Origin: Candidatus Forterrea multitransposorum CG_2015-17_Forterrea_25_41
Lineage (GTDB): Archaea; Iainarchaeota; Iainarchaeia; Iainarchaeales; CSSED10-239
Length of the DNA stretch: 64,000 nucleotides
Assembly: GCA_009392915.1 (NCBI GenBank)
Contig: CP045477.1
Location: 256,001-320,000, forward strand
Reading direction: 5' to 3'
In this document: positions 2,848 to 21,198 of the stretch, piece after piece
Layout: the number at the start of each line of letters is the position of its first letter
Numbering within the stretch: position 1 is the stretch's first letter
Position numbers and translations under genes: made by a program
Notes under the pieces: generated by a model
Databases searched by the model: none
What the model was told of the DNA's origin: nothing
The model's input: the letters and a program-made list of their open reading frames with translations, nothing else

Positions 2848-5800
2848 ATGTCATTTAAAGATGCTTGGCAAAATTTTCTAACAAAGATAGACAACAGAAT
2901 ACCAATTAAAAAGATAACAGGCCCACTTGATAAAAAAAATCCCTTAACTTCTTTTTTTATTTTTCTTTTAATAATTTTAGTTGTTTTATACTTAATCTTT
3001 GGATCAAGTATAACACTAAATAATCAAAAACTAACTGAAGTTACAATAAGACTTGCAGATTCAGATAATAATATTTTAGATAATTTTGATTTTAAGATTA
3101 GAAATATATCTGATGGAATAACAAATAGTTATGTTACAAACTCATCAGGTTCTTTAACTTTAGAACTAGATTTAAATAAAAAATATTTATTAATTATTGA
3201 TTCTCCTAATTATGAACTTTTAGAAGAAGAAATTAATTTATCTTTAGATTCTTTAAATTTTATAGTTACTGTTTTAGATACTCCAATTAATTATTTAAAA
3301 ACAGTTTACTTTGAAGATGCATTAACTAATAGCTTAATTGAAGATTCTTTAAATGTTACAATTAGATGTGATAATGGAGAAATAATTACTCCAAATACTA
3401 TTGATACTCAATCTGGAAGTGTAGAAATTAATGTTCCTTTAGAATGTGAAAATATTTATGCATCTGTAAGAGGAGATAGGTATATTGAAGAAAATCTAGA
3501 GATGCCTATTACAGAAAGTACTTTCAAGCTTGAATCTATAACTGAAATATTAGAGAGTGGAAGAGTTTCTATTTCAGTATTTTCTGGAGAAGATATTATT
3601 CAAGATTCAATAACTATTAAAATATTTTCAGTTGATGATTCAATAACTCCAATTAATACTACACAAACAACAAATGGAATTGGTTTTTTTAATTCAATAC
3701 CAGTTGGTGAATATATTGTTAAAGCAAGTGATGTTTCAAATAGATATCTTCAAAAACAAGAACAAGTTACAATAATTAAAAACTCACTTTCTGAAATTAC
3801 ATTTGATTTAATAGATACAGATACAGACTCTCCTATAATAATTGATCCTGATACAAATCAAGAAATTGTTATAAGAGAAGTTACTGTTTTTGTAAAAGAT
3901 AAGGATTCAGGAGAAATTATAGATTCTTCTTTTGATCCTAGTGTTACTTTACTTTTAGATGGTAATGAAAATATTGAACAAAGAAACCTTAATGAAGGTT
4001 TTATTTTTAATATTTCAGAGGATAAATCATATTCTCTTAAAGCAACAGCAGAAGGTTATATTCCTGGAGAAATTATTCCAATAATTTCTGGTAAAAATAC
4101 ATATATTTTTAATTTAGAAAAAATAACAATAAGTAATGTTTCAAACCTTAATATTACTGTTCAAGATGAAGACTTAAAACCAATTGTTGGTTTAAAATCT
4201 TGGATATATGATAAAGATGGACAATATATAGATCCTAGATTTGATTTTTCAACATCTGATGAAAATGGAAATATTGTTTTTGAAAATATTCCTGATCTTA
4301 ATTTTACAATAAAAGTTAAAAATAGTTTTATTGAAGAGACTTCTTCAATGTATCATAATTCTCCACCAGAAGATACTAACATAACATTACCTGTAGAGAT
4401 TGGTACTGGTACAGTTAATTTAACTGTTAAAAATAAATTAAATGATATTGTTTCAAATGCACAAGTTACTTTTTATTCTGAAAGTTTAGAAGTTTTAGGT
4501 AGTTCTTTTGCATCTTCAAATGGAACTTTAGAAAATGATCTTAAAGCTGATAAAAGAATTTTTATAAAAATAGAAGCTGATGGTTATCTTCCTTACTTTA
4601 CAGAGCTTTTTAGAATTTATAAAAATAAAACAGTTACAAAAGAAATTATTCTTGAAAGAGAAAATTTATCAGATGATGTTTCTGTTGAGTTTTTAGGACT
4701 TTATAATTCTTTAGATACTGAAGTTGAATCTTTAAAAAACAATGAAGTATTTTATTTTAAGTTTAAAGCAATCATGCCTGTTTCAAGTCAACATTTTAAT
4801 TTTGTATTTAGAGCAGGTTCTTTTACTTCAGTAACAGAAGATATTGTTTTTATAATGCCACAAAATACTTCTTTAGGTATTCCTGTTTATTATGAAAATG
4901 AGCCATTTAATGAATCAGGGAATTATTTAGAATCTAAGTTAGTTGATATTGAATTCTTAGGATATCCTGCTTCAGTTCATGAAATTACAATTCCTATAAG
5001 AATTAAAAATGCAGCTATTAATGAAAGAGTTTCTTTCTTTTATGATTCTTCAATAAATAATATTGACTTTATGTCAAATAATTTTAATCAATTACAATAT
5101 TTTATAGAAGCTACAAGTCTTTGTGGAGAAGATTTTTGTTTTTCAGGACAATATGTTGATGTTTCTCAAGACTTAAGATATGATATTTCTTCAAATAATT
5201 TAATTTCAACAAATATTCATTCAGATTATATTTTAGAATATCAAATTACAAATTCTTCTTCAAATAGTTTTGAAGATGTAAGACTTTCTACAAGAAATTT
5301 AAATAATGATGATAATCCAGTAGCTATGATTAACATTAATAGTTATTCAATTTCTGGAGAAGCAACTTCTGTTGGTCAAACAATTGAAGGAGAAAATAAT
5401 TTTAATATTCCTTTTACTGGTGATGAAATTAATTTAGAAAAAATTAATCCTTTTTCAAGTATTAATTATACTTTAAATGTAACTCCTTTAAATCTTGGAC
5501 AATCTAAACTTACAAATAGAATTATTTCTCTTCAAGAAGAAATCTATTCTCTTCCTATAAACTTTTCAGTTTCAGAACTTGAAACTATGGAAATTGATTA
5601 TGAACCTAAAAATATTGTTCCTGGACTTCCTTTTGATTTATTAGTAACTGTAAAAGATACTCAAGGAGAATATTTAGAAGGAGTAAATATTAATATTTTA
5701 CAAAAAGTTAGAAATGAGTATATTACTGTTTCAACAGGAAAAACAACTGATCCTCAAGGAAATGTAATAATAACTTTACCATCTTTAAGACCAGGAGAGA

Positions 5801-8800
5801 CTTTTGAAATACAAGCTATAAAGTCAAAATATTTTTCTCAGAATGTTTCTTTTACAATCGGAACTGATATTTTAGATGTTTATTCTCAAGAGCAAATATT
5901 ATCTTCTGAAAGTCCACTTGAAGTATTTATTCATAAAACAAATATTAATGGTGAAACTTATTCTTTAACTTTAAAAAACAAAACAAACTATGCTTTAAAA
6001 ATTAATCAATTTAATACTGAAGATTTTTCTTTTAATAAATCTTATTTACTTAATTTAGAGCAAACTGTTAATTATCTTAATAATCAAATAACTTCTCAAG
6101 CAGAAGGTTTTGTAATTCCTGCAAATGAATCTAAAGAAATTGTAATTAAGTTTGCCCCTTCAGATTCTGCAAGAACTCATCCTGTTTCAGAAGATATTTT
6201 AGGTGCAATTACAGGAAATTATTCTTTAAATAATTATGATTATCGTTTTACAATTCCTGTTAAAGCAAAATTTTCTGTTGGAAGTGGTGTTTTATTTGAT
6301 GATTGTTTAGTTGTAACTCAAAGTCCAGGAGAATGGAATACTGTTGTTTCTACAAGTACTCAAACAACTTCTTTTACAATAAAGAATACTTGTCTTTCAA
6401 AAGAAGGAGAAGTCCCAATACCTATTAAAAATGTACAAGCAAAGATATCTTCTCAAGCAGATAGATATGGTGTTTATTTCTTAAACCTTATAGGCCCATC
6501 TTCTTCAAATCAAATACAGTTGTCTGAAAATTACTATAGAGTTGTAATTGATCAAATGGCTCCTGAAGAAGAATATAGAGTTGATTTAACATTTAATACT
6601 AATGGTACAAGATTTGCAGATGTTAAAACAAATATACATCTTAATGCTCAAGTAGAAACTGAAGATGGTTTATCTTTTGTAAATAAAGAACCTAAAGATA
6701 TTTTCTTAAAAACAAATATTTCAATAATGAATCTTAATGATTGTTTTTCATATATTGATCAAAATGGAAAAGTAATTAATTCAGGTGGTCTTTATACTTT
6801 AGAAGGTATTGAAGAAAATGAATTAACTATTAGAAACAATTGTCAAGGAAAAGCTACTTTTAAAATGAATCTTTGTGATGCTTATGATTTAGGTTGTAAT
6901 GATTTAATTATTACAAATACAGATGAAGAAAATAATATTTTAAGATTTTCACTTAACGATTCTGAAAAAACAGTATATATTAAAAAAGATTCAACAAAAG
7001 CACCTGGTGCTTATATTCTTAATAACAGAGTCTCTGTTATAAATAATTTTGAAAGAGAACTTGCATCTTCTTTTGCTCTTTTAAAAATAAATGCAAAAGA
7101 TCCTAATGGTTTATGGATGGAAGATCCTTTTATAGAGATTAATGAAGATAAAGTTTCTGAGATTAAAAGATTATATAATAATAATTTAGAAAAGACTCCT
7201 TGGGATTATGCAAGTTATTATCAAGGAGAAGAAGGTTTTGGAAAATTTATAACAAATATTTATTATACAGGAAATACTTGGAAAAAATCTTTTAATCAAC
7301 ATTGGAGTAGATGTATAGCTGGAGATGATACTTGTTTATTTAACGGGGATAATTCTTTACTTTCAATGAGATTTTTACCAGAAAATCAATTAAGTAATGT
7401 TGGTGCAGAAGGATTAAGTGCAGGTGGTGCAATTGGGATAGGAATTGGTACTGCTGCAATTGTTTCATTAGTTTTAATTATGGCAAAAGTTGCTGTATTA
7501 GGAAGTCTTTTAGGACCTGTCGGTTGGATAGTTGCTGGACTTTCAATTGTTGTTGCATCAATAGCACCATCTTTCTTTTCAGATTATGATGTAGATGTGC
7601 AACCAAGGTTTTTGGATGTTTCTGAAAATAATACTATTGATAATTTAGTTGCTTTAAAAGAAATATCTGTAGATGATTTAAGTGATCAAAAAGAATTAAT
7701 TAATGTATTTGATATTACTGGTGCAAGATATTTTAAATATTTTAATAATGTTATTTTTGCACATGGAAAACTTGCTTCTAAAAAAGAAATTAAAAGTGTA
7801 CTTCCAAAATGTAATGGTATAAATAATTTAGTGCCTGTTGATCAATTTTTAAAAGTATATAATAAACCTCCATTTTGTGATGAAATAACTATAGAAGAAA
7901 CTGAAGATTCTTATATTTATAAAACAAGTTGTAATGGACAAAAATTAAATAGACTTGAATTAAATTTATTCTATAGTGCTTATTCAATATGTAAAAGTGA
8001 TGAAACATATTGGCCAGAACAAGCAGGTATAAAACCTTTACAGTTTAATTTAACTGATGAAATATATAATTTATTAGATAATGATTCTAAAAAATATTAT
8101 TTTAAAAAATATGAATTTAATCCAACTTTAGATGATTCAAATAGCACACAAGATTTAGCTTTTGTAGATTCAGATAGTGTAGGAAATTATAGATTTGGTT
8201 TCTTTTTAACAAAACCTGAAGAAACACCAAATTATGATCTTTCATTACAAGAATGTGTAACTGATACTGGAAGAACTGGAAAAACAGGAGAAGGTGCAGT
8301 TCCAAATATTTCTCTAAATTGGAATTGGGCTGAAACTGATTGTGCACAAACATATTGTGATGCAACTCAATTAACTCAAGATGTTTTAGATAGAATTAAT
8401 GATGCTGAAAAATTAATTTCATCAAATGTTGTTCAATGTCCTATAAGTAATCAAGAACTTTATGACCAAGCATTAAATGGTTCTTATAAAGTAACTGCAG
8501 AACCATCTGATGTTATTAATGAAATACCTGTTGGAAAAGTAGGTATTAATTCTGTAAAATTAGATTCTCAAAATAATAAATTAGCAATAAAAGTAGTTTT
8601 AGAAAACAGATCTGATACACCATCTTCAGGAACTATTGTTATTAGTCTTGATGATAAACAATTAGAATCTATAAAATACAGAGATGTAGCTTCAGGAGAA
8701 TATATTGAAGAAAATATAGATTATCCTGGATCTTATTCAAAAAGTATAACTGTTCCTTCTGGTATTGATAATACTAATGAAATAATTTTTGTTTATAAAG

Positions 8801-10248
8801 AAGGAATTTATGGTGAAGACTTACCTTTAACTATTGATTATTTAGCAACAAATTCACATAGTAATATGTTTGCTTCAAGTGTTGATTTATCAAGTTATCA
8901 AGCAGAAGAAATCAATGAGTGTCAAGTTCCAGCAACAACTGCAAGATTTGATGGAACAAGTTATTTAGATATGTGGCTTAATAAAGAAATGTATCCTGAT
9001 AATGTTGTAGGTTCTGGTTGGTCTCAAACTGATATTACAAAACTTAAAGAACTTTTAGAGTTTGATGCATACTTAATAACAGATAATTATAATAGTAATT
9101 TTAAAAATGACTTTGATATGGCCTTCGGTGGTCTTGCTTCAAAAGAAGATGGAGCTGGAGCTGGAAATTATGCTATAATGTCTTCTCCAACTGTGTTTTC
9201 AAATGGTTATCTTTCTAAATTATTTAAAAACAATTTAATATTTACAAAAGAATATTCAAGTGAAGAAAATGTAAATATTAATGTTCCAGGAAAATATAAA
9301 ATTAAAATTGATTTATTATTTGAAAATGGTTCTTGGAATTTTTATGAAGGTGATGATCTAGATGTAAATGCATTTGTAACTTTTAGATTTATTTCTTCTC
9401 CAGAAACAGATAGTGTTTTCTATAGAATGCCATTTAATGGATTTGTTGGAAAAACAACTTCTGGATATGATAGACAAGGTTATGGTGTTTCTTACTTAGG
9501 AGATTCTATAAGAGTTGATAATGAAAATGTAATTACAGAAGAAGATTATGGTTCAAATTCATTAAGAACAATAACTGTTACAAAATCAAATGATCTTTCA
9601 AGAATTAATTCAAATATTGAAACAAGAGGTAATCTATTAAGTATTAAATATAATCAAACAGACAATGTAGATTTAATATTTACTCCAAGCACACCAATTC
9701 CTTTACTTATGAGTATTGATAAGAGTAATAATAGCCCTCTTAATGTGATTTATAGACTTAAAGATAAGAGTGGTAATGCTATTAGTTCAACTTCTTTATT
9801 AAGATGGACAGGTGTTGGTTCTGGTTGTGACTTTTCTGGTAATTCTATATATAATATGACTTATTATGATAGATATGCTGGAGATGAAGGTGCAGTTTCT
9901 GCATATGTAGTTGATTGGCCACAAGTCTTAAGAACAGGAAAAATATATTTAAGAACTGTTTTCTATAGTCCTGAAAGAGAGTCTTATTCTTTAGAGAATA
10001 GATCTGATCAAGGTGTTATGGTTAAGTTTTCAAAGAATGGAACTAATTATTCTTCTTCAGTTTCTTTAGGTGAAGATGATTTAACAGGCATTAAATCTAT
10101 TTCAGATGTATTTAATTTAATTAAAGATAATAAAGTATGTGTTGTAAATTCATATGATGGAAAAACTTCTGATTTCTTTTATAATCCTTCAGAAATTTTT
10201 ACAGAGAAGTTTACAAAACAACCTTCTGATTCTTTAGAATGTAGTTAA
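2848..10248 (+). CDS. Giant (2466 aa) membrane-anchored surface protein. It has an N-terminal signal-anchor TM, multiple carboxypeptidase-regulatory-like or transthyretin-like beta-sandwich repeats, an internal two-helix TM hairpin (aa ~1520-1575), and the conserved Cys-containing C-terminal module.
   Basis: Long uninterrupted ORF 15 nt after the previous gene, with an AGAGGG RBS-like motif. Hydrophobic segment LTSFFIFLLIILVVLYLIFG. Repeated ...GYxPxxxEL/... beta-sandwich-like units. Gly/Ala-rich hydrophobic hairpin AGGAIGIGIGTAAIVSLVLIMAKVAVLGSLLGPVGWIVAGLSIVVASIAPSFF. C-terminal motifs ECVTDTGRTGKTGEGAVPNISLNW, FYRMPFNGFVGK...RQGYGV, LLRWTGVGSGCDFSG, IYLRTVFYSP, NKVCVVNSYDG. Confidence 0.85.
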   Translation: MSFKDAWQNFLTKIDNRIPIKKITGPLDKKNPLTSFFIFLLIILVVLYLIFGSSITLNNQKLTEVTIRLADSDNNILDNFDFKIRNISDGITNSYVTNSSGSLTLELDLNKKYLLIIDSPNYELLEEEINLSLDSLNFIVTVLDTPINYLKTVYFEDALTNSLIEDSLNVTIRCDNGEIITPNTIDTQSGSVEINVPLECENIYASVRGDRYIEENLEMPITESTFKLESITEILESGRVSISVFSGEDIIQDSITIKIFSVDDSITPINTTQTTNGIGFFNSIPVGEYIVKASDVSNRYLQKQEQVTIIKNSLSEITFDLIDTDTDSPIIIDPDTNQEIVIREVTVFVKDKDSGEIIDSSFDPSVTLLLDGNENIEQRNLNEGFIFNISEDKSYSLKATAEGYIPGEIIPIISGKNTYIFNLEKITISNVSNLNITVQDEDLKPIVGLKSWIYDKDGQYIDPRFDFSTSDENGNIVFENIPDLNFTIKVKNSFIEETSSMYHNSPPEDTNITLPVEIGTGTVNLTVKNKLNDIVSNAQVTFYSESLEVLGSSFASSNGTLENDLKADKRIFIKIEADGYLPYFTELFRIYKNKTVTKEIILERENLSDDVSVEFLGLYNSLDTEVESLKNNEVFYFKFKAIMPVSSQHFNFVFRAGSFTSVTEDIVFIMPQNTSLGIPVYYENEPFNESGNYLESKLVDIEFLGYPASVHEITIPIRIKNAAINERVSFFYDSSINNIDFMSNNFNQLQYFIEATSLCGEDFCFSGQYVDVSQDLRYDISSNNLISTNIHSDYILEYQITNSSSNSFEDVRLSTRNLNNDDNPVAMININSYSISGEATSVGQTIEGENNFNIPFTGDEINLEKINPFSSINYTLNVTPLNLGQSKLTNRIISLQEEIYSLPINFSVSELETMEIDYEPKNIVPGLPFDLLVTVKDTQGEYLEGVNINILQKVRNEYITVSTGKTTDPQGNVIITLPSLRPGETFEIQAIKSKYFSQNVSFTIGTDILDVYSQEQILSSESPLEVFIHKTNINGETYSLTLKNKTNYALKINQFNTEDFSFNKSYLLNLEQTVNYLNNQITSQAEGFVIPANESKEIVIKFAPSDSARTHPVSEDILGAITGNYSLNNYDYRFTIPVKAKFSVGSGVLFDDCLVVTQSPGEWNTVVSTSTQTTSFTIKNTCLSKEGEVPIPIKNVQAKISSQADRYGVYFLNLIGPSSSNQIQLSENYYRVVIDQMAPEEEYRVDLTFNTNGTRFADVKTNIHLNAQVETEDGLSFVNKEPKDIFLKTNISIMNLNDCFSYIDQNGKVINSGGLYTLEGIEENELTIRNNCQGKATFKMNLCDAYDLGCNDLIITNTDEENNILRFSLNDSEKTVYIKKDSTKAPGAYILNNRVSVINNFERELASSFALLKINAKDPNGLWMEDPFIEINEDKVSEIKRLYNNNLEKTPWDYASYYQGEEGFGKFITNIYYTGNTWKKSFNQHWSRCIAGDDTCLFNGDNSLLSMRFLPENQLSNVGAEGLSAGGAIGIGIGTAAIVSLVLIMAKVAVLGSLLGPVGWIVAGLSIVVASIAPSFFSDYDVDVQPRFLDVSENNTIDNLVALKEISVDDLSDQKELINVFDITGARYFKYFNNVIFAHGKLASKKEIKSVLPKCNGINNLVPVDQFLKVYNKPPFCDEITIEETEDSYIYKTSCNGQKLNRLELNLFYSAYSICKSDETYWPEQAGIKPLQFNLTDEIYNLLDNDSKKYYFKKYEFNPTLDDSNSTQDLAFVDSDSVGNYRFGFFLTKPEETPNYDLSLQECVTDTGRTGKTGEGAVPNISLNWNWAETDCAQTYCDATQLTQDVLDRINDAEKLISSNVVQCPISNQELYDQALNGSYKVTAEPSDVINEIPVGKVGINSVKLDSQNNKLAIKVVLENRSDTPSSGTIVISLDDKQLESIKYRDVASGEYIEENIDYPGSYSKSITVPSGIDNTNEIIFVYKEGIYGEDLPLTIDYLATNSHSNMFASSVDLSSYQAEEINECQVPATTARFDGTSYLDMWLNKEMYPDNVVGSGWSQTDITKLKELLEFDAYLITDNYNSNFKNDFDMAFGGLASKEDGAGAGNYAIMSSPTVFSNGYLSKLFKNNLIFTKEYSSEENVNINVPGKYKIKIDLLFENGSWNFYEGDDLDVNAFVTFRFISSPETDSVFYRMPFNGFVGKTTSGYDRQGYGVSYLGDSIRVDNENVITEEDYGSNSLRTITVTKSNDLSRINSNIETRGNLLSIKYNQTDNVDLIFTPSTPIPLLMSIDKSNNSPLNVIYRLKDKSGNAISSTSLLRWTGVGSGCDFSGNSIYNMTYYDRYAGDEGAVSAYVVDWPQVLRTGKIYLRTVFYSPERESYSLENRSDQGVMVKFSKNGTNYSSSVSLGEDDLTGIKSISDVFNLIKDNKVCVVNSYDGKTSDFFYNPSEIFTEKFTKQPSDSLECS

Positions 10249-10321: not shown

Positions 10322-10684
10322 ATGAGAAGATACATTTATTTATTTTTAATCGTTTTCTTAGTTTTTCCATTTATTTCTGCACTTAGTTATGATAATGAAA
10401 TCTATGTAAACCCTTTTGTTTTTGGTGTAATTAGAGGGGATGATGGGGAAGTTATTTCAAATATTTCTGATGATGAAATAATAGATCCTGAAATGCAAGT
10501 TTCAAGTGCAAATGGGTTTACTAAAAAATCAGATCTTGATTTAACCATAAGAGAGAATCTTTTGATTTTTAAACTTCCTTCTTATCAAAAAACAAATAAT
10601 AATTCTTTAAATAAATATACTTTTATTTATAATACCTTTGATTATCCTTCAAAGAATGTAAATATTTTATTTAAATTAAATTGA
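10322..10684 (+). CDS. Small secreted protein (120 aa) with an N-terminal signal peptide. Function unknown.
   Basis: N-terminal segment MRRYIYLFLIVFLVFPFISALS followed by a hydrophilic mature part. Stop overlaps the start of the next ORF (ATGA-type coupling). Confidence 0.55.
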   Translation: MRRYIYLFLIVFLVFPFISALSYDNEIYVNPFVFGVIRGDDGEVISNISDDEIIDPEMQVSSANGFTKKSDLDLTIRENLLIFKLPSYQKTNNNSLNKYTFIYNTFDYPSKNVNILFKLN

Positions 10685-13110
10685 GAAAATATATGAGATA
10701 TTTAAAAAAAATTATTTTAACAGTAATATTAATTACTTTTATTTTACTAGTTCAATCATATGTGTTTTCAGCAAGTTGTAATTTAACTCCAAATCAAACT
10801 TCTCTTAGAACTCTTTCTTTAGGTTGTAGTGGTGATGCTTGTGATTTTGTTTTAATTAAAAGTGAAGATGTATCTTCTCAATATAATTCTTGTATTGATT
10901 CTTGTGATCCTGATAATTATCCTGAAAATTACAAAACTTGTATGACTGATTGTTATGATTCTTCAATTAATTCTACAACTGATATTTCATTAAACAGTTC
11001 TTTAAGTTTTTCAAAATCTTCTGAATGCTCTGATAAAGAAATAAATGTTTCTTTAGCAGCAGATATTAATTTTGAAATGTTAAATGAAACAACTTCTCTT
11101 TCAATTTCAGGTATTGATTCTTTAAATACTAATGGAAAAGATATTATAATTTTTGTAAACAATAATGATAAACTTGGAGATGCAACTTTTAGGTTTGATT
11201 TTAGTGATTTAATAATTTCTGATACTTCTAAAATAATTATGACAACAAAAGAAAGAACTTCAATTACAGATTCTATTAATGGTGGGTGGGATGATTGGAA
11301 AAGAGATGGTATTAAACTTTATTTTAATAATTTAGAAATATTAGAAAATGCATCACTTGATTTAAATATGTATATTCCTAAAAATATTTTTAATGTAATT
11401 GATGAAATAGATATGCCTAGAACTTCACTTGCAGGTGGTGAATTAACTTTTGATGGAAACTTAATAGTTAATAATGGTAATTTAAATATTTATCTAAAAG
11501 CACAAGATAGTCAAGATGGTAGAAATTATATAGATTCTGGAAATTGTTTTGATGATCCAGCTTCACAAGGTGGAACTGTTAAAGAGGCAGGGCACATATT
11601 TTTTAACTTAAATTATTTAGAGAATAATGGTTTACTTTTTTCTAAAATGTTATCTGGAAATGGTGGTATTGGAGGTAATGGATCAAAAGCTCAGGATGGA
11701 TGTCGTGGAGATCCTCCAGGTCATGGTGGTAGAGGGGGAAATGCAGGAGATATTTTTTTATATATTAATAATATAGATAATACTAGTAATATTGATTTTA
11801 ATTTAATTGCAGGAAATGCTGGTCCTGGTGGAGATACAGGTTTTGATGGTGGAAATTCTCGTGAAAATTTTGCTATTGGAGGTTCTGGTGGTAATGGAGG
11901 AAATATTTATTTTTGTAAACCAATTTGGAATTCTGGCTTTAGTTGTTTGATAAATAATTATAATTCATTAATAAATAAAGGTAATTTTAATTTAGTTGCA
12001 AATACTGGTTTTGGAAATAATGGTGGAAATAAGAATAATCATCCTGATGAAGGTAGAGCAGGAGATGGAGGAGATGGTGGTTCTTATTTATCAAGTTTAA
12101 CGTTTGATTTTATAAGAAACTCTGGAAATTTAAATATTGCTCTTGAAACAGGTTATGGTGGTTTTAAAGGAACTACTGATGGTGGTGAAGATGGTGTTGG
12201 TGGAAGAACTCCTAATTTTTTTATTAATTTCTTAGAAAATTCTTCTGAAAATTTAAATATATTTTTAAACAGTAAACATGAAATTGGTAATCTTGAATCA
12301 GATGTTATTATTGATAAATTACAAAATGGTAGTTATCTACCAAGTATGATATATACTGTTTTTACTGATTGGACTTTTACACCTAGTGAAGAGTGTGCAA
12401 TTAGTTGTCAATCTAAATTTGATTCTTGTTATCATTTGCCTTCAGCTTGTAATAGATTTTTAGATATGTGTTTATATACTTGTGATAAAACTACAGAAGA
12501 TCTTGAAACTGTTACACAAAATAGAAAAATAAAAATTAATGATGCATGTTATGTTAAACAACCATCAAGTGCTTTAGATTATATGACTGGATTTATATAT
12601 GTTAATTCTGCAAATAAAGATGTTTTTGAAAATCTTCTTCCAGAAAATGTTTCTTCTAATCTTACTAATAACTCAGAATGTGTAATCTGTGATTATTATG
12701 ATTTTGAAAATTTAAATGAAATATTTCCAACAGGTTCTGGAAATAAATTCTTTAAAAACTATACTTTATATTCTACAGTTCAAGGAAAAATTAATGCAGG
12801 AGATTTAGAAATACATTATGCTAAAAATGATCTATCTTTTACAAAAATAAATAAGCTTTATAATCCTTTTACAAAAGAAAATAATCTCCCACTTTATTCT
12901 AATAAACAAGATATAACAAGTAGTCAAGAACCTAATTCTCTAGGTTTGTATGAATATAATATAGATGCAAGTAATCTTGAATGGTATTATGATAAAGAAA
13001 TGGACTTATCAGAAAAAGATTTATATTGTTATAATCAAAATTATAGAATTGAAGGAAAAATAGGAACTAAGATTTTTAACTTCCCATTTACTCCATTATT
13101 TAAAAATTAA
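10681..13110 (+). CDS. Secreted Cys-rich, Gly-rich repeat protein (809 aa). It carries about 6 copies of an xNLNIxLxxG beta-strand-like motif, each followed by a GGxGG-type glycine stretch. The N- and C-terminal regions are Cys-rich.
   Basis: Signal-peptide-like N-terminus (ILTVILITFILLVQSYVFSASC). Internal repeats NGNLNIYLKAQD, NTSNIDFNLIAGNAGPGG, NKGNFNLVANTGFGNNGG, NSGNLNIALETGYGG, SSENLNIFLNS, separated by GGIGGNGS / GHGGRGGNAGD / GGSGGNGGN / GDGGDGG / GGEDGVGG stretches. Many Cys before aa 100 and after aa 550. Confidence 0.7.
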   Translation: MRKYMRYLKKIILTVILITFILLVQSYVFSASCNLTPNQTSLRTLSLGCSGDACDFVLIKSEDVSSQYNSCIDSCDPDNYPENYKTCMTDCYDSSINSTTDISLNSSLSFSKSSECSDKEINVSLAADINFEMLNETTSLSISGIDSLNTNGKDIIIFVNNNDKLGDATFRFDFSDLIISDTSKIIMTTKERTSITDSINGGWDDWKRDGIKLYFNNLEILENASLDLNMYIPKNIFNVIDEIDMPRTSLAGGELTFDGNLIVNNGNLNIYLKAQDSQDGRNYIDSGNCFDDPASQGGTVKEAGHIFFNLNYLENNGLLFSKMLSGNGGIGGNGSKAQDGCRGDPPGHGGRGGNAGDIFLYINNIDNTSNIDFNLIAGNAGPGGDTGFDGGNSRENFAIGGSGGNGGNIYFCKPIWNSGFSCLINNYNSLINKGNFNLVANTGFGNNGGNKNNHPDEGRAGDGGDGGSYLSSLTFDFIRNSGNLNIALETGYGGFKGTTDGGEDGVGGRTPNFFINFLENSSENLNIFLNSKHEIGNLESDVIIDKLQNGSYLPSMIYTVFTDWTFTPSEECAISCQSKFDSCYHLPSACNRFLDMCLYTCDKTTEDLETVTQNRKIKINDACYVKQPSSALDYMTGFIYVNSANKDVFENLLPENVSSNLTNNSECVICDYYDFENLNEIFPTGSGNKFFKNYTLYSTVQGKINAGDLEIHYAKNDLSFTKINKLYNPFTKENNLPLYSNKQDITSSQEPNSLGLYEYNIDASNLEWYYDKEMDLSEKDLYCYNQNYRIEGKIGTKIFNFPFTPLFKN

Positions 13111-13133: not shown

Positions 13134-16100
13134 ATGTCAATATTTAAAAAATCAAGAGACAAAATAGAAGCAGAAAAGCTATATGCTCTTTTATCAGACA
13201 AAACTACAAACTATACTCTAGAGGATATTAAAGAGACTATTAAAAAACAAGGTTATTCTGATAAAGTTTCTTCAATTGTTGTAAAGATGATTACAGATAA
13301 TAAACTTCCTTTAAAAGATTCAGTTAATAAAACAAAAACAAAAGAAGAAGTCTTAAAAGAATTATCAGCTTCTGTTGATAAAAACTTCTCTAAACAAAAT
13401 CCAAAAGATTCTTCAAAAGATTCAAAAAAAGAAGATAAAAATAATCAAAAAGAAAATACAAAAAAACAAGAAGATATTAAAAAAGAAGATTCTAAAAAAC
13501 AAAAAGAAGATCTTAAAAAAACAAAAGAAACAAATTTAAAAAATATTAATAAAGTTCCTTTCTTTACAAAAGTAAAAACTTTCTTTAAAAGAATATATTT
13601 CTTTTTTGAAGATAATTACTATAAGATGGTTGATGGTGTAAGTAAAGTTATACCTCTAAACAAATTAACAGACAAAATAGATAAAGTTTTCCCAAGTTTC
13701 ATATTATTCTTATTAATCTTAGCTTTATTGATATATTTAATACTTTCAGGAAGTTTATCTTTCTCTAAAACTTGGACAGTTGCTGTAGAGGTTTATGACC
13801 CATCTTCTGTACCCTTAAAAGATGTTTCTGTAACTTTAATGCTTAAAGATGAAAATTTTTCAACTTTAAAAACAGATATTTTTGGTGAAGTTATTTTTAG
13901 TGATTTTAAATCTAGAAAACAAAATATTAATTTAATAGCTTCTAAAGATAATTATGATACAGTTGAACATTCCTTTAAATTAAGTAAAAGTAATTTAAGA
14001 CAAAAGTTATATCTTCCAACAGATGTAAATTCTAAGATTGATCCTTCAGAAGAAGAAGTAAGAGAAATTTCTTTTGTTGAAAATAATACTGTTTTAATAA
14101 CAGATTCTGTATTAACTACAAATTTTTCTTGTACTAATGCAGATGTAGAACCTAATCCTACAAGAAAAGTTATTTCTTCAGGAAAGGTAACAGTTACAAC
14201 TTATTCTGGTTGTGGTGCTTTAAGAGTTTCTGTAACTTCAGATGATTTTTCTTCAATTACAAATCAAGTTATAAATTCTTCAAATAAAGTAAATCTTACA
14301 AGAATTAATCTTGATAGAGGTAATTTAGGTTTCTCTGTTAAAAACATATCTGGAAGTTCAATTCCTGGAACAGAAGTTAAAGTTTATAGTTCTTCAAACA
14401 CTACTTTTCCTCATGATACAACCACAACTGATCTTTATGGTTTAGGTGAGTTTAGTTTAGAACCTAAAAGTTATTTTTTAACTTTCTCAAAAGAAGGTTA
14501 TCTAACAAATCCTTTAAAAGGTCCTTTAACTGTTATTAAAAATGATTCTGTAAACACAGATGTAGTTTTATTTACTTTAGATGATCTTTTAGAATTTGAT
14601 TGTTCTGATGATAAATATTCACAATTTTGTATTGCTGATGAAATTGATTGTTTTAATCCAAACTTAAAACCATTTTTAATAAATAATGCTGATGGTTCTT
14701 GTACAATTGGAAGACCAGGTTATATTTCTGTAACTTTAAAAGATGTTAATTCTGGAGAACCTGTATATGCAGATATAACTTTAGATTCAAAATTAAAAGA
14801 ATCTGATCAAAACTTTTCTCTTGGTGAACATATTGCAAGGGATACTAATTTCTATACTTTTAATGTTATTGATTTCTATAATTATAGAGTAAGAGTTTTA
14901 AATACAGAAGAGAGTGGTTATCTTCAACCAGATCCAGTCACTGTAAACGGTATTGATCAAAATATAACAGTTAATTTAGAATATTCTTCTTCCCTTAACT
15001 CAGGAGATATTTCAGTAAATGTTAAGAGTGCAGATATGCCTATCTCAAATGCAAGAGTTTATTTATATAAAGAGTTTGAAGATGATTTTGTTTTAGTAAA
15101 TTCTGATCCATTATTTACAAATCAAAATGGAGATGTTAATTTTTATTCTCAAAGAGCAAATAGAGATTATTATGCTTATGCTTTACATAATGTTTTAGAT
15201 AAACAAGGAACTTCACAAACAGATGATTTAGATGTTAACTCAATACTTGATTTATCAATAGATCTTGAAGATATTCCAAAGATATTAAATCTAAAGGTAA
15301 GTCCAAGTATTTCTTATGATATTAATTTTTATAATTCTTCAGATAATCTTGTAACTGAATATGTAAGAACAGATCTTGAAGATGGAAATTCTCTTTATTA
15401 TTTTACAGGTTCTATAAATAAAGTTTATGCAGTTGTTTCTTCTTCAGGTTATACTACCTATCAAACAGATTATATTACTTTAATACCTGATCAAGAAGTT
15501 TATAAAACAGTTAATCTTTCTACACTTTCTTCTTGTGAAGACTCTAAGTTAGAAATTTTAGGTCTTTATGATGGTTCTGGAGTTTTAGAAATTGATAATA
15601 TTGATTTTGTTGAAAATGATTTAGATAAAGAATACAGATTAAAGTTTAAATATATTTCATGTACAGAAGATGAAGAATACAATCAAGCTACTTTAAGACT
15701 TGGAAGACAAGGTTTAATAGATGATGAATATTTATTCTTTGTTTCAGATCAATTTACTTCTCAAGATATAGATGTTACAAGAGGTTATAAATTTTCACAA
15801 GAACATATACCTGACTTTAATTTTGATCTTTTCAATCTTAATTATTCTCAAGATAGATCTTATGATTATTCTGGTGAAGGTTATAAATGGATTGAAATTG
15901 ATTTTGAAAAATTAAATTCTGATATCTTAGAGTTTTCAACTAACTTTAAGTTCAGAGAAGATTCAATTGTTCCTTTTGAAAACTATGTTTTAAATTATAA
16001 ATCATTTGCAAGTATTTATGATGAACTTTATTCTTTTGATCCTGTTTTAAATGAATCTTGGACAGAGATACCAATCTATCCTAATGGTTATTTTTATGCA

Positions 16101-19100
16101 GAAACAAACAAATATTTAATACCTTTTGAAAATACAGATTATATTTATTCTGTAAAATTAAAAGACTGGAATCAAAATCTTTTAGAAGAATATGCTGGTG
16201 GTTATCCTGTATCTATTAATAATTTTTATAAATATGATCTAAGTTATTTATATTTAAATCAAACAGAAAGAAACGGTAGTGTTTTACAATCTTCTCAATA
16301 TACAAATAATAATTTAGATTATTTAAGTTATGGTTATACTTCATCTTTAGGTAACTCAAGTTCAGGAGATACTCAAAATGCTACAAATAACATGACTTCA
16401 TTTTTAATACTTCCAGATTATAATACTCTTCCAGGTTCAACAGATACTACTATAAATCAAGAAATCTATTATCATATTAATGTTGATGATTATAATTATT
16501 CTTTAGATGATATTAATGCAGAGATTGGTTATTATTTAAATACTTATACTCTTTTAGAGCCAAAAGGTTTTTTTGAAAATACTAATTTTTCAGATTCAAG
16601 TATTATTTCTGATGTTTTAGATGAGTACCCTTTAGTTAATACAAGTATTTATTCTTATTTATCTGATGAAAATTTTATATTTAATATTTCAACTAACTTT
16701 TCAGGAAACAGAATAATTATTGGTGAAAATAATTTAGGTTTTAAAGTTTTAGATAATTATGGTTCTCCAGTTTCAAATGTTTTAATAAAGTATAAAGTTG
16801 ATGGTGATGAGCTTATAACTTTAGGGTCTACAAATGAACAAGGTATGCTTAGTGATCAAAATATTTTTATAAATCTTTCAGATATTGGAAAAAATATTAA
16901 TTTTGTATTTTTGTTTTCTCCAGAGTTTGGTTTCCTTGCAAACACAGTTGTAAGAAACAAAGAAATCTATTCTGGATTTTCAATAGTTCCAGAAGATATT
17001 AATTTATCTGCAAGTTATTATATTTTAAATGATCAAGTTATAATTGATCAAGTTTCTACAAATAATTATAATCTTTTAAAAGAAACAAATTATTCAAGCA
17101 CTTTAGAAGAAATTGATTTTGTTGGAGAATCAAGTTTGTTTAATCTTGATTCTATTAAAAATAAAATGATTGAAGATAATAATCTTGTAAAAGATTTATT
17201 AGAAGGAGAAAATGAAATTATTACAAGTCTTTTCTTAAACAATAATATTTCTCAATCAACAAATCTTTTAGGTTATTATAGAAATGAAATTGATATTAAT
17301 AATTCTTTAACACAATTATTAGATATTAATTCAAATGTTGAAATTATTAATCTAGGTTCAATTAACTATGATTTTAATCTTGAAAAACATTTTATGAAAG
17401 GACTATTAATTGAAAACAATAATGTTTCTCTTGAGCTTATAAAAGAAATAAACGAATTAATTACTTTAGATTTAAATCTTTTATCAGATAACTCTCAAGC
17501 AACATTTGATAGTATTTCTGTAGAGCTTCCTGAATTTTTAGATCTTGAAGAATTTAATGAAGGTTATTCTTCTTTAGTTGGAGAGTCTTTAACTTCTGAT
17601 GGTTTAATAATTCCTCTTAACTTTAAGATTAATAACTCCTATTCAGGTTCTCTTCCAACTCCAAAGGAAGATATTAATTTAACTTTTAATGTTTATCTTG
17701 ATGATAAATTAGTTTCTTTTAATAAAATAATTTCAATAAAAGTATATTCTAAAGATGACATCTTTTTAATAGAGTCTGAAGGAGACTTACAGATCTATTG
17801 TACTGTTGAAAATTGTTCTCAAAAAAAATCTTTTACTTTTAAAAAATTAGTTAATAATTATATATTAAATCTAAATAAAGAAATTGAAATCAATGAGATG
17901 GATTTAATTGAAGTTTCAAATCTTTTAAGTAATATTAATTTTATTGACCTTTCTGAAAAGAACAGAGCTTTATCTTTTAGTGCCCTATATAATTCTGTTA
18001 ACGAAGAAAATAAACAAGGTAATTTTGATTTAATTTTTAATATTAATATTTTAAATGATTCTTTTAATATAGAAATACCTATTGATTATTTAATTATAAA
18101 ATATTTAGAAGAAGAAACCATAAGTGAAATTACTTTTAATTCCTGTATTGGTGTTGGTGGTCAAGAAAGCAGTAGTGATTTATTTATTTTAGGTTATTGT
18201 CAAGATACCCAAGATACTTGTAAAACAGGAGAATCTGCTGTTCCAAAAGTATTTTTTAATTGGGCAGAATCTGACCTTTCAACAGATTATGACGGAAAAA
18301 CCTGGAATAATGTCTGTATTGGTAATAGCCAAGATACAATGTCAAGTAAATATGCTTGTGATTCCTTACAAATGTTAATTTCAATTTTTAATAAAATTGA
18401 TAATGGTGTAGAAGAATCATTCTATATTAAACTTTTAAATGATGGAATTTCTGATGCTCTTTTAAAAGATTTTATAAATTATAATACACTTTACTTAGGT
18501 TATGATAAACCTAGTGAAGAGATCTTTTCAGAAGATGCAGTTGATGATGGTTTATTTAAAATAACAATTAATAATTCTCCAGAAATTAAAATTTTCCAAC
18601 CTGGTATCTATAAAGTTTTAGTATATGGTGATGATTCAGGAAATGCATATATGGGAAGAGAAGAAGATCAAATGATAGATATACGTCTAGAAAAGGTAAG
18701 TGATCTTCCTGCATCAGAGATAAGTGTATTCCACTATATGCCATTTAATGGTAATTTAGGTTTAGATGGTACAAGAGAGGGTTACGGTATTAAAAATCAA
18801 GATAGTGATGTTGCTCAATTAACTCAAGATGTTGATATTAATTATATTGATGTTATAGATGAAATAATTCAACTATCTTTAACTAATAATAATCTAGAAA
18901 CTTCTCACTTAACACAAACATTAAAGTCTGAAGGAAAAATACTTGAATTAAATAAATATGATAGTGTTGTTGAAATGATTTATTCTCCTTCATATCCAGT
19001 ACCAATATATTCTCATGTAGCATGTATTGATAAAGATGATTTTAGTTATAATCTTTATGAAAATAATAATGCTTTAGATAATATTATAGGTGGATCATTT

Positions 19101-19577
19101 ATTGATTGGAATTTTAATAATACCATAAGATCAGATGTTAAAACAACAGTAACAGGAGATGTTACTAGATACGTATTTAACAATAATAATTTAGAAGGTT
19201 CTTTAAACCTTAATTCAATGTTATATCTTCCTGTAAAATTAAATATTGATTCTTTAAAACTTAAAACCACAGAGTTTGCAAATAATAAAAATACAACTTT
19301 ATTTACAAAGAATAATTTTACAGGTGTAAATCAAGCAGATTTAGTTTTCTCTGAAGATGATTATGTTCTTGGAAATGATTTAATAAACCTTAATACTATT
19401 AAAGGTTTATTTAATTTTATAAGTCAAGAAAAAGCATGTATTGAAAAATCTATTGATAACACAACTATTAAATGGATTGATGAAAAAGTTAATTTTACAG
19501 AACAAGAATTACTTGATATAAATAGTAATATTCCTTCTGATTATTCTTGTCTTGAAGGAGAGGTAATCATAGATTAA
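13134..19577 (+). CDS. Giant (2147 aa) membrane-anchored surface protein. A ~185-aa Lys/Glu-rich N-terminal region precedes a single TM; beta-sandwich repeats and the shared C-terminal module follow.
   Basis: ORF begins 23 nt after the previous gene. KE-rich low-complexity N-terminus. TM segment FPSFILFLLILALLIYLILSG. Repeats of the ...KEGYLTNP / ...DxxGxVxF type. C-terminal motifs GYCQDTQDTCKTGESAVPKVFFNW, FHYMPFNGNLGLDGTREGYGI, EKACIEKSIDN. The true start could instead be the internal Met just before the TM (MVDGVSKV...). Confidence 0.8.
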   Translation: MSIFKKSRDKIEAEKLYALLSDKTTNYTLEDIKETIKKQGYSDKVSSIVVKMITDNKLPLKDSVNKTKTKEEVLKELSASVDKNFSKQNPKDSSKDSKKEDKNNQKENTKKQEDIKKEDSKKQKEDLKKTKETNLKNINKVPFFTKVKTFFKRIYFFFEDNYYKMVDGVSKVIPLNKLTDKIDKVFPSFILFLLILALLIYLILSGSLSFSKTWTVAVEVYDPSSVPLKDVSVTLMLKDENFSTLKTDIFGEVIFSDFKSRKQNINLIASKDNYDTVEHSFKLSKSNLRQKLYLPTDVNSKIDPSEEEVREISFVENNTVLITDSVLTTNFSCTNADVEPNPTRKVISSGKVTVTTYSGCGALRVSVTSDDFSSITNQVINSSNKVNLTRINLDRGNLGFSVKNISGSSIPGTEVKVYSSSNTTFPHDTTTTDLYGLGEFSLEPKSYFLTFSKEGYLTNPLKGPLTVIKNDSVNTDVVLFTLDDLLEFDCSDDKYSQFCIADEIDCFNPNLKPFLINNADGSCTIGRPGYISVTLKDVNSGEPVYADITLDSKLKESDQNFSLGEHIARDTNFYTFNVIDFYNYRVRVLNTEESGYLQPDPVTVNGIDQNITVNLEYSSSLNSGDISVNVKSADMPISNARVYLYKEFEDDFVLVNSDPLFTNQNGDVNFYSQRANRDYYAYALHNVLDKQGTSQTDDLDVNSILDLSIDLEDIPKILNLKVSPSISYDINFYNSSDNLVTEYVRTDLEDGNSLYYFTGSINKVYAVVSSSGYTTYQTDYITLIPDQEVYKTVNLSTLSSCEDSKLEILGLYDGSGVLEIDNIDFVENDLDKEYRLKFKYISCTEDEEYNQATLRLGRQGLIDDEYLFFVSDQFTSQDIDVTRGYKFSQEHIPDFNFDLFNLNYSQDRSYDYSGEGYKWIEIDFEKLNSDILEFSTNFKFREDSIVPFENYVLNYKSFASIYDELYSFDPVLNESWTEIPIYPNGYFYAETNKYLIPFENTDYIYSVKLKDWNQNLLEEYAGGYPVSINNFYKYDLSYLYLNQTERNGSVLQSSQYTNNNLDYLSYGYTSSLGNSSSGDTQNATNNMTSFLILPDYNTLPGSTDTTINQEIYYHINVDDYNYSLDDINAEIGYYLNTYTLLEPKGFFENTNFSDSSIISDVLDEYPLVNTSIYSYLSDENFIFNISTNFSGNRIIIGENNLGFKVLDNYGSPVSNVLIKYKVDGDELITLGSTNEQGMLSDQNIFINLSDIGKNINFVFLFSPEFGFLANTVVRNKEIYSGFSIVPEDINLSASYYILNDQVIIDQVSTNNYNLLKETNYSSTLEEIDFVGESSLFNLDSIKNKMIEDNNLVKDLLEGENEIITSLFLNNNISQSTNLLGYYRNEIDINNSLTQLLDINSNVEIINLGSINYDFNLEKHFMKGLLIENNNVSLELIKEINELITLDLNLLSDNSQATFDSISVELPEFLDLEEFNEGYSSLVGESLTSDGLIIPLNFKINNSYSGSLPTPKEDINLTFNVYLDDKLVSFNKIISIKVYSKDDIFLIESEGDLQIYCTVENCSQKKSFTFKKLVNNYILNLNKEIEINEMDLIEVSNLLSNINFIDLSEKNRALSFSALYNSVNEENKQGNFDLIFNINILNDSFNIEIPIDYLIIKYLEEETISEITFNSCIGVGGQESSSDLFILGYCQDTQDTCKTGESAVPKVFFNWAESDLSTDYDGKTWNNVCIGNSQDTMSSKYACDSLQMLISIFNKIDNGVEESFYIKLLNDGISDALLKDFINYNTLYLGYDKPSEEIFSEDAVDDGLFKITINNSPEIKIFQPGIYKVLVYGDDSGNAYMGREEDQMIDIRLEKVSDLPASEISVFHYMPFNGNLGLDGTREGYGIKNQDSDVAQLTQDVDINYIDVIDEIIQLSLTNNNLETSHLTQTLKSEGKILELNKYDSVVEMIYSPSYPVPIYSHVACIDKDDFSYNLYENNNALDNIIGGSFIDWNFNNTIRSDVKTTVTGDVTRYVFNNNNLEGSLNLNSMLYLPVKLNIDSLKLKTTEFANNKNTTLFTKNNFTGVNQADLVFSEDDYVLGNDLINLNTIKGLFNFISQEKACIEKSIDNTTIKWIDEKVNFTEQELLDINSNIPSDYSCLEGEVIID

Positions 19578-19579: not shown

Positions 19580-19951
19580 ATGAGTAATATTTTTTTAAAT
19601 TTTTTAAATGATTTTGATTTAATCTTACAGTTATTTTTAATTCTTACAATCATTGCATTTATCAGAAGAAGAGTAACTCACAATACATTAGCTCTTTTTT
19701 TAATAAGTGTAACAGTTATTGCTATGATCTTTTTATTCTGGCCTGTCTTTAAAATTGGATATATTTTCTATATTCTTTTGTCAGTTGGAGTTGCAGGAAT
19801 ATTTGTTGATTTCTTCTTTATTAGTGCTGGTGGTTCTGCAGAAGAGATGATGGGTAAAAAAATGGAGACTCATGGAACTCCTGGAGCAACTGAACATGCT
19901 GCAAGAAATCAATTAGTTAAAAAAATGGGTGGAAGACCTCCTGGAAGATGA
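19580..19951 (+). CDS. Small polytopic membrane protein (123 aa, about 3 TM) with a basic soluble C-terminus.
   Basis: Starts 3 nt after the giant ORF stop. Hydrophobic helices LILQLFLILTIIAFI, LALFLISVTVIAMIFLFWPVF, IGYIFYILLSVGVAGIFVDFFFI. Confidence 0.5.
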   Translation: MSNIFLNFLNDFDLILQLFLILTIIAFIRRRVTHNTLALFLISVTVIAMIFLFWPVFKIGYIFYILLSVGVAGIFVDFFFISAGGSAEEMMGKKMETHGTPGATEHAARNQLVKKMGGRPPGR

Positions 19952-20306
19952 ATTAAAAATGAATAGTAATAAAGGTTTTTTTGGTGGTATTCCTTTAATT
20001 GCAAAGATATTAGTAGTGTCTGTTATTGCAATTTTGATTGTTCCTGGGGCAATGGCAATTTTTCCTTGGGTTAAGTATGTTATAATGGGTTTAATTGTTT
20101 TTTTTATTTATGAAAACGCAGCACAGGCTTTTGGTGAAAAAAATATTCTTACCTTTATTGTGACTGGTATTTTAGCTTATTTTTTAGTTTATAAATATTT
20201 ATTTCTTACAAGTGCTATAATGATGGCATATTTATTTTTAGGCTTTGGTTTAGTTTCTGTTTTCTTTTGGGGAACTTCTACTCTTTCCAGAAAAGGCAAA
20301 AAATAA
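19929..20306 (+). CDS. Small polytopic membrane protein (125 aa, about 3-4 TM).
   Basis: Overlaps the previous ORF by 23 nt in another frame. Hydrophobic helices IAKILVVSVIAILIVPGAMAIFPW, VIMGLIVFFIY, ILTFIVTGILAYFLVY, MMAYLFLGFGLVSVFFWG. Lys-rich C-terminus. Confidence 0.5.
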   Translation: MEDLLEDELKMNSNKGFFGGIPLIAKILVVSVIAILIVPGAMAIFPWVKYVIMGLIVFFIYENAAQAFGEKNILTFIVTGILAYFLVYKYLFLTSAIMMAYLFLGFGLVSVFFWGTSTLSRKGKK

Positions 20307-20314
20307 TTTTAATA

Positions 20315-20388
20315 GGATCTATGGTGTAGCCTGGATAGCACGTAGGCTTGCGGAGCCTAAAACTTGGGTTCAAATCCCAATAGATCCG
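20315..20388 (+). tRNA. tRNA-Arg (anticodon GCG), 74 nt, no encoded CCA.
   Basis: Hand-folded cloverleaf. Acceptor GGATCTA/TAGATCC with discriminator G. D-stem GTGT/GCAC. Anticodon stem TAGGC/GCCTA with loop TTGCGGA. T-arm TTGGG-TTCAAAT-CCCAA. Confidence 0.7.
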
Positions 20389-20507
20389 TCTTTATTCTTC
20401 TCTAAATGCCCATAAAATAAGGTTTTTAACACATCTATTTAAAAAGCTTTGGTATTATTAATTAATTAAAACATATAACTTTTATTACATAAAAGGGGGA
20501 ATTAAAA

Positions 20508-21189: not shown

Positions 21190-21198
21190 ACTTATAAT

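Follow-up and report, generated by a model that had tools for sequence, protein, structure and literature searches.

The window analyzed here, a stretch of 64,000 nucleotides (nt) of Candidatus Forterrea multitransposorum CG_2015-17_Forterrea_25_41 (Iainarchaeota, DPANN; contig CP045477.1, positions 256,001 to 320,000 of the forward strand), contains at 10681..13110 an open reading frame (ORF), termed Q, whose glycine-rich centre had been singled out in a first-pass annotation made from the sequence alone. The NCBI entry 'hypothetical protein GW835_02495 [archaeon]', of 805 amino acids (aa), is a 100% match to Q. Since this protein and all homologues begin MRYLKK, the true start is probably ATG 10693 (805 aa) and not TTG 10681. 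Residues are numbered from TTG 10681 throughout, 11440-12270 being residues 254-530. The features of Q are the following:

10681..13110, forward strand: ORF Q, 809 aa from TTG 10681, a hypothetical protein predicted to be secreted
10693..10770, forward strand: putative signal peptide (KK, a 17-residue hydrophobic core, then VFS/AS as the presumed cleavage site)
10777..11028, forward strand: N-terminal Cys-rich cap, a predicted helix pair with CX3C at residues 71 and 87 (twin-CX3C hairpin)
11029..11433, forward strand: plain beta-solenoid coils without glycine segments, including the degenerate unit U0 (residues 206-251), from secondary-structure assignment (DSSP) of the predicted model
11434..11586, forward strand: repeat unit U1, residues 252-302 (hhalign probability 97% to U2 and 95% to U3)
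11587..11742, forward strand: repeat unit U2, residues 303-354 (profile comparison, alignment and model)
11743..11904, forward strand: repeat unit U3, residues 355-408 (hhalign U2-U3 probability 98.3%, E 2.4e-14)
11905..11946, forward strand: insertion between U3 and U4, residues 409-422, with C412 and C422; its length differs among homologues
11947..12087, forward strand: repeat unit U4, residues 423-469 (hhalign probability 89-96% to U1-U3)
12088..12207, forward strand: repeat unit U5, residues 470-509 (hhalign probability 92-93% to U2-U4)
12208..12315, forward strand: degenerate closing unit U6, residues 510-545, strands only, without glycine segments
12388..12483, forward strand: Cys-rich helix pair, residues 570-601, with CX3C at 572 and 597 (DSSP and alignment)
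12484..13107, forward strand: conserved C-terminal beta-rich domain, 89% aa identity among close relatives
11330..12530, forward strand: hypervariable recombining segment covering the glycine-repeat domain and the Cys hairpin, delimited by sliding-window DNA identity

All 11 motifs quoted in the first-pass annotation were recovered where it had placed them in the translation of 10681..13110. Residues 254-530 are 20.6% Gly and 16.6% Asn, and residues 252-509 hold 59 Gly in 258 residues, compared with a Gly content of 4.5-9.2% in 11 other proteins of the window. The window has a GC content of about 25%, and the Gly codons of residues 252-509 are almost all GGT or GGA (56 of 59), indicating that the Gly richness is held against the composition of the genome. 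The motif GG.GG was observed five times against 0.63 expected, a count reached by 30 of 20000 shuffles, and pairs of Gly were over-represented at a lag of 3 residues (z 4.6) and of 6 (z 2.1), and not at a lag of 2 (z -0.1).

To define the repeat, units were cut at the predicted strand pairs of an alignment of 14 family members and compared profile against profile. U1-U5, of about 40-54 aa each, proved mutually homologous, with probabilities of 89-98% for all pairs except U1-U5 (73%) and E-values from 2.4e-14 to 3e-5. A BLASTP self-comparison of the central region of Q returned nothing. Each unit consists of a strand of about 10 residues, an Asn-Gly-type turn, a strand of about 7 residues, G.GG.GG.G, a variable loop, G.GG.GG..G and the next strand; in U2 the order is the strand IFFNLNYLEN, an NG turn, the strand LLFSKML, GNGGIGGNG, the variable loop and GHGGRGGNAG. 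Strands are kept and glycines are absent in both U0 and U6, and U0 is weakly similar to U1-U3 (hhalign probability 21-56%). The periodic strand and glycine design proposed by the first-pass annotation is thus real, and the repeat detection it called for found five homologous units, but the period is about 50 residues rather than a short alternation of strand and turn.

The distribution of Q was determined by homology searches. Relatives of Q were few: a word-indexed protein database gave 15 matches, and 1.84 billion representatives, searched exhaustively with a profile, yielded 131, of which about 45 were full-length. Relatives were found in metagenome-assembled genomes (MAGs) named Candidatus Iainarchaeum, ainarchaeum, Diapherotrites or 'archaeon'. 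Conservation was scored at a threshold of at least 80% in 37 full-length relatives with 25-91% identity to Q. Among the 87 columns conserved at this level Gly occupies 39, of which 37 lie in the central domain, where they make up 37 of 48 conserved columns. Since the glycines are conserved in relatives, the Gly repeats are not the compositional drift that the first-pass annotation had considered. One Asn per unit is also conserved at an equivalent turn position in six units (N264, N315, N367, N432, N480 and N520). The solenoid has no conserved Asp, Glu, Lys, Arg or His, and D708 is the only conserved charged residue in all of Q.

Q matched nothing in Pfam (E<=1), NCBIfam or PHROGs, in agreement with the earlier remark that it was not recognised as a described family; scans of its small neighbours against the same three libraries gave no match either. 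Sequence searches of the PDB with Q, with its central domain and with the three giant proteins of its gene cluster returned nothing significant. No relatives of Q were found in phage genomes (tblastn) or IMG/VR viral contigs. A homologous-protein search with U2-U5 alone gave no match, its candidates having probably been swamped by glycine-rich words. The literature on giant-protein clusters of DPANN archaea and Iainarchaeota yielded no matching description. The family is unnamed, and no library or paper searched describes its periodic fusion of a beta-solenoid with putative segments of the polyproline-II (PPII) type, its fixed place in a giant-protein gene cluster of Iainarchaeota or its cassette-like variation.

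The fold of Q was predicted with AlphaFold2. The full protein, modelled from a 14-sequence alignment, gave a predicted local distance difference test score (pLDDT) of 79.4 and a predicted template modelling score (pTM) of 0.75; the central domain (residues 200-550), modelled from 37 sequences, gave 89.9 and 0.90. In the full model the plain coils carry strand pairs every 18-45 residues or so (DSSP). The central model contains regular strand pairs, and the stretches of about 30 residues between them were assigned neither helix nor strand. The model has the stacked parallel coils of a right-handed parallel beta-helix and resembles solved members, and the sequence offers one conserved Asn per unit at equivalent positions, as in an asparagine ladder. 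Of the beta-helix or beta-roll-like solenoid suggested by the first-pass annotation, the beta-helix is thus what AlphaFold2 predicts, whereas an RTX-type beta-roll does not agree with a Gly period of 3 and the absence of GGxGxD. That the centre of Q is a repetitive solenoid we regard as nearly certain.

When the central domain was placed on solved beta-helices, about 170 of 351 residues superposed, and the glycine half of each coil (about 30 residues) had no counterpart. The solved right-handed parallel beta-helix adhesins, namely the Awp1/Awp3b A-domains of Candida glabrata (7o9q/7o9p), EtpA (8vba), tapirins (6n2b), Hap, HMW1 and FHA, are 7-17% identical to Q; about half of the central domain superposes on them, with no family-level sequence match. 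Q is archaeal and apparently Sec-exported, and is not an autotransporter, two-partner-secretion or glycosylphosphatidylinositol (GPI)-wall protein.

A beta-helix polysaccharide lyase, hydrolase or depolymerase acting on the envelope of a partner would share the predicted fold. We consider such an enzyme very unlikely, because the solenoid has no conserved acidic, basic or His residue and the whole protein only D708, no glycoside hydrolase, lyase, Beta_helix or similar Pfam model matched Q or its 37 relatives, and the best structural matches of the central domain were non-enzymatic adhesins. A Ca2+-binding RTX-like beta-roll, or a Ca2+-dependent beta-helix like region IV of the Marinomonas ice-binding adhesin, is highly improbable. 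The RTX motif GG.G.D (HemolysinCabind, PF00353) has zero matches in Q, which holds four isolated GG.G.N; the Gly period is 3 and not 9, there was no Pfam match to PF00353 in Q (E<=1) or the 37 relatives (E<=0.1), and no Asp that could form a Ca2+ site is conserved in the central domain.

The Gly stretches were taken by the first-pass annotation for turns, but with their period of 3 they behave like polyglycine-II (PGII) segments, and it is likely that they form PGII (PPII-like) helices. This reading is based on four indirect lines of evidence: the Gly period of 3 together with the conserved GxG-GxG-GxG pattern; segments modelled with high confidence yet without regular secondary structure (pLDDT 90-98 for the glycine motifs compared with 73-87 for the loops between them); Foldseek best matches to PPII-helix antifreeze proteins; and the Obg N-domain, the sole recurrent sequence resemblance, which has PPII glycine segments. 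GGX triplets, 3-5 per helix, with strictly preserved glycines are the signature of PGII sandwiches (PMC10216338), and Q has triplet periodicity with conserved Gly (lag-3 z 4.6; G.GG.GG.G; 37 Gly columns).

The alternative is that Q is a plain beta-helix, a structural or spacer protein of the envelope, with irregular loops for Gly stretches and a variability that reflects weaker constraint on loops. The DSSP assignment of these stretches as neither helix nor strand is what irregular loops would also give. On the other hand, no residues of the family are better conserved than the glycines, which is unexpected for weakly constrained loops, the glycines follow a strict period of 3, and their segments were modelled at pLDDT 90-98. 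We therefore consider a plain beta-helix unlikely, and PGII helices remain the preferred reading of the glycine segments.

The top Foldseek match of the central domain in the PDB was the springtail antifreeze protein 7jjv, which has nine PPII helices (E 0.012, probability 0.95), followed by the snow-flea antifreeze protein (E 1.5-3.9), both ahead of any beta-helix. These matches raise the alternative of an ice-binding or antifreeze protein with a flat PGII or beta-helix face. This is extremely improbable, since the outward-facing x residues of the triplets (Asn, Asp, Arg, His and Ser) make up no regular array of Thr or small residues, conservation would be expected of a flat ice-binding face, yet this segment of Q is hypervariable, and the gene sits in a conserved cluster with giant proteins carrying immunoglobulin (Ig)-like domains.

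Q shares with the known PPII/PGII bundles (7jjv, 2pne/3bog, gp38 6F45, the PE_PGRS 'PGII sandwich' and ALK/LTK) the GGx period, about three triplets per segment and strictly conserved Gly. It differs from them in that the glycine segments recur with each solenoid coil, two per unit of about 50 aa, and form no self-standing bundle; there is no sequence homology, PE domain, tail-fibre context or viral relative, and in Q the PPII geometry is putative. Gp38 of phage S16 combines PPII helices, beta-solenoid layers and variable loops in an adhesin tip (10.1101/2023.11.25.568672), and in Q too conserved glycine motifs bracket variable loops beside beta-solenoid layers. Membership of PE_PGRS was rejected: there is no PE Pfam match, the runs are of about three triplets and split by strand pairs, and the organism is archaeal. 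Q had no match to Gly_rich (PF12810) or Gly_rich_2 (PF21722), and one of the 37 relatives reached Gly_rich_2 at E 0.077.

The Obg N-domain (GTP1_OBG, PF01018; 1lnz, 1udx, 4csu) has the same order as Q of strand, AGxGGxG, loop, GGxGGxGG, strand, turn and strand over about 78 residues, and experimental structures show its glycine segments to be PPII helices. In Obg six such helices are combined with a beta-barrel base, whereas Q would be a repeating extracellular solenoid. Q is not an Obg protein: it has no Pfam match of its own and no GTPase domain, and it carries a putative signal peptide.

The cysteines and the two ends of Q were also analyzed. Residues 5-33 are the sole hydrophobic segment of the protein, of Sec-signal type and kept in homologues; this single N-terminal segment and the 22 Cys count in favour of export. 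The Cys-rich flanks noticed earlier were found as described, with CX3C at 71, 87, 572 and 597 and CxxC at 667. The model places the four CX3C motifs in two helix pairs, at residues 66-95 and 570-601, which suggests two twin-CX3C hairpins stapled by disulfides; whether read as disulfides or, as was also proposed, as metal ligands, these roles of the Cys motifs are inferred. C33, C116, C623, C667, C670 and C783 are invariant in 37 sequences, and the stretch around C667xxC670 was poorly modelled. The C-terminal domain and the terminal FPFTPLF are the best-conserved parts of Q. FPFTPLF (13080-13107, residues 801-809) is kept family-wide, with F803 invariant and P802 and P805 present in >80% of the 37 relatives, and no transmembrane segment follows it. 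It could serve as a docking strand or a sorting signal.

Q lies in a co-directional cluster that runs from an open-ended giant gene through G1, a 120-aa secreted protein, Q and G2 to two small membrane proteins:

1..2832, forward strand: C-terminal part of a third giant paralogue; the frame is open to the window edge, with no stop upstream of 322
2848..10248, forward strand: giant G1, 2466 aa, with an N-terminal membrane anchor and Ig-like/CarboxypepD_reg domains
10322..10684, forward strand: small secreted protein S, 120 aa, always directly upstream of Q
13134..19577, forward strand: giant G2, 2147 aa, with a Lys-rich N-terminus, one transmembrane segment (181-212) and Ig-like domains
19580..20306, forward strand: two small multi-pass membrane proteins, 123 and 125 aa, at the end of the cluster

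All seven products are membrane or secreted proteins, indicating that the cluster is an envelope module. Every related locus with sufficient flank, even at 27-29% identity, has the same order of giant, protein of about 125 aa, Q and giant, so that the co-occurrence with the giant proteins, which the first-pass annotation had proposed as a check, is conserved; the two small membrane proteins are also kept in most related loci. The giants carry Ig-like/CarboxypepD_reg domains and have in common a C-terminal domain of about 400 aa, which had no Pfam or PDB match and for which a homologous-protein search with the G1 copy gave one unnamed match. The ORF of the third giant (322..2832) is incomplete; its copy of this domain is 31% identical to that of G1 and 22% to that of G2, and its counterpart in the related loci L001 and L018 has at least 964 aa.

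The variability of the locus was determined in five related strains. Their Q proteins show 75-91% aa identity, and the flanking DNA is 93-100% identical to the window. In sliding windows all five strains fell to 44-77% DNA identity at 12381-12530, and all but one of them to 71-80% across about 11330-12250. Over 20 kb the median DNA identity between the window and L018 was 98%, and the only 300-nt bins at 71-75% were those of 11499-12698; bin 11199 was at 0.87. The giant Ig-domain proteins are conserved (96-100%). Two places in G2 also deviated: one bin (17799-18098) was 87% identical (0.87) to L018 against the 98% background, and a Lys-rich region of 21-nt repeats at the N-terminus (13431-13580) was 73% identical in L014.

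The six strains, including that of the window, carry five central alleles with 70-86% pairwise identity and three to four alleles of the C-terminal Cys hairpin (DNA identity 32-74%), which assort independently from the central alleles: in L014, L017 and L005 the hairpin is 100% identical and the glycine domain 75-80% identical. This mosaic pattern indicates recombination. The hairpin is the most variable piece of Q, with 24% aa identity among close relatives. Its allele (12388-12483) is long in the window and in L015 and about 20 aa shorter in L014, L017 and L005; both forms keep the two CX3C motifs, the putative disulfide scaffold being retained while everything else has changed.

Synonymous divergence (dS) was 0.43-0.56 between central classes and 0.86 in the hairpin, compared with 0.079 in the N-terminal and 0.061 in the C-terminal domain. 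The alleles are therefore old and not merely fast-evolving. A dS in the segment 5-14 times that of the flanking domains and the mosaic alleles point to allele exchange rather than merely relaxed constraint, and this also argues against the plain beta-helix whose variability would come from weakly constrained loops. Within the central domain aa identity is 58% in loops, 77% in strands and 82% in Gly motifs, and loops have a median ratio of nonsynonymous to synonymous divergence (dN/dS) of 0.64, Gly motifs one of 0.32. A target of a diversity-generating retroelement is unlikely: no copy of 11330-12530 or other template-like repeat was found elsewhere in the 64-kb window, no reverse-transcriptase domain was found in the window ORFs scanned, and the variation spans about 1.2 kb at about 25% divergence, with no short adenine-specific tract.

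Besides the family itself, about 80 further proteins matched the profile in its central part alone, at E 1e-10 to 1e-3. Bacterial look-alikes among them (such as P0053, P0056, P0058, P0060 and P0066), whose matches cover 150-300 positions, have the same strand/GGNGGxGG repeat as Q, and a two-unit profile aligns with them element by element, although composition strongly biases its HMMER scores. Their N-termini carry signal peptides or are lipoprotein-like, and they lack the N- and C-terminal domains and the gene cluster of Q. Ten look-alikes were scanned: Flg_new repeats occur in three, together with LRR_5 in one and with MACPF in another, and their repeat region matched no Pfam or NCBIfam model, the only name given being 'hypothetical protein'. 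One bacterial look-alike, P0068, scored 21.3 bits with the Gly_rich/Gly_rich_2 models against a cut-off of 24.3, and one look-alike cluster is annotated Oscillospiraceae/Ruminococcaceae. Judged from these alignments, the module may be broader than the archaeal family, by homology or by convergence.

Other features were observed elsewhere in the window, which encodes split archaeal RNA polymerase subunits, aminoacyl-tRNA synthetases and elongation factor 2 (EF-2). A tRNA-His(GTG) gene lies directly upstream of that for histidyl-tRNA synthetase (21200-22770), which is followed, after one unassigned ORF (22773-23399), by an EgtD-like histidine methyltransferase gene (23437-24375); a tRNA-Pro(TGG) gene lies about 1 kb upstream of that for prolyl-tRNA synthetase (28380-30990). 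L018 has an insertion of about 1.8 kb (20127-21969) with a serpin gene (448 aa, PF00079), located beyond the HU gene and upstream of the stretch matching the tRNA-His of the window, and absent from the window (20806-20827). At 48477-49604 this archaeon has a gene similar to that for 1-deoxy-D-xylulose 5-phosphate (DXP) reductoisomerase (Pfam DXP_reductoisom, E 4e-15); one survey reported the mevalonate and not the methylerythritol phosphate (MEP) pathway in its Iainarchaeota MAGs (PMC10936187). Just upstream (48097-48366) is a tandem array of eleven copies, spaced 15 nt, encoding a Lys/Ala/Pro/Val-rich peptide (KKAPAKKVVA-like). More envelope and transport genes occupy 50900-61521, including a split MMPL/SecDF-like pair, an ABC-2 transporter, a CARDB/DUF11 surface protein (53333-54583) and a T2SSE/type IV pilus-type ATPase (60124-61521), and GC content drops to 19-20% beyond 58 kb.

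Taken as a whole, the data are best read as Q being the exposed, specificity-determining part of a surface adhesion complex, an interpretation that we hold to be somewhat more probable than its opposite. Q would be a Sec-exported, disulfide-stapled extracellular protein of Iainarchaeota, built as a rigid, elongated right-handed beta-solenoid. Its central third would be built of five coils of about 50 residues, each with two beta-strands joined by the conserved Asn turn of the ladder and each contributing two (GGx)3 segments that bracket a variable loop. These segments, most likely PGII helices, would stack in a flat glycine-packed layer on one side of the solenoid, with the loops facing the solvent. 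The conserved N- and C-terminal domains probably dock Q on the flanking giant membrane-anchored Ig-domain proteins, and the glycine domain and the twin-CX3C hairpin would form an exposed surface that determines what the complex binds, or what binds to it, be it a substrate, a virus or another cell (partner or host), and whose diversity would be maintained as old alleles recombine. Since this domain is the only fast-diverging, recombining segment of the 20-kb cluster, it probably sets what the cell surface binds or what recognises it. The nearest structures of the central domain are adhesin-type beta-helices; for a role of Q in recognition or adhesion as such we consider the chances about even.

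Several observations weigh against this interpretation. The Foldseek E-value of 0.012 is weak and partly driven by composition, and the phi/psi angles and packing of the Gly segments are deduced from indirect lines. The Obg resemblance is sub-threshold, with E 0.19-0.6 against the PDB and 6 of 37 relatives hitting GTP1_OBG with at most 20.5 bits, below its cut-off of 27. Because pairwise dN/dS is below 1 in every region, with loops at 0.64, diversifying selection is not demonstrated, and the evidence consists of old divergent alleles and recombination. Finally, a free-living way of life has been proposed for Iainarchaeota (PMC10936187), which makes the existence of a 'host' uncertain.

The hypervariable Ig-domain gene module of Thermococcales (PMC8416519) is also archaeal and has a large surface protein with a hypervariable part, for which a function in conflict or self/non-self recognition was proposed. 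Other proteins, domains and taxa are involved there, whereas in the cluster described here the giants are conserved and the variable element is a separate glycine-repeat protein. A more far-reaching version of the interpretation, which we put forward tentatively and think somewhat doubtful, is that the strand pair and (GGx)3 hairpin constitute a new class of solenoid repeat with a continuous PGII sheet, used by Iainarchaeota as an exchangeable, hypervariable recognition head on a giant-protein surface organelle, a cellular analogue of the receptor-binding tip of phages that would select the partner cell or virus with which the cell engages, and deployed in bacterial surface proteins as well.

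One domain of one protein is thus the only strongly divergent, recombining element of a conserved seven-gene envelope cluster in near-clonal strains. A beta-solenoid fused with a periodic PGII layer would extend the handful of natural PPII-bundle architectures, and the repeat would give a name to an unannotated module that bacterial surface proteins also contain. DPANN archaea are assumed to depend for their living on contact with other cells; to our knowledge almost none of the molecules that set the specificity of this contact have been identified, and the locus of Q is a concrete candidate for such a determinant.

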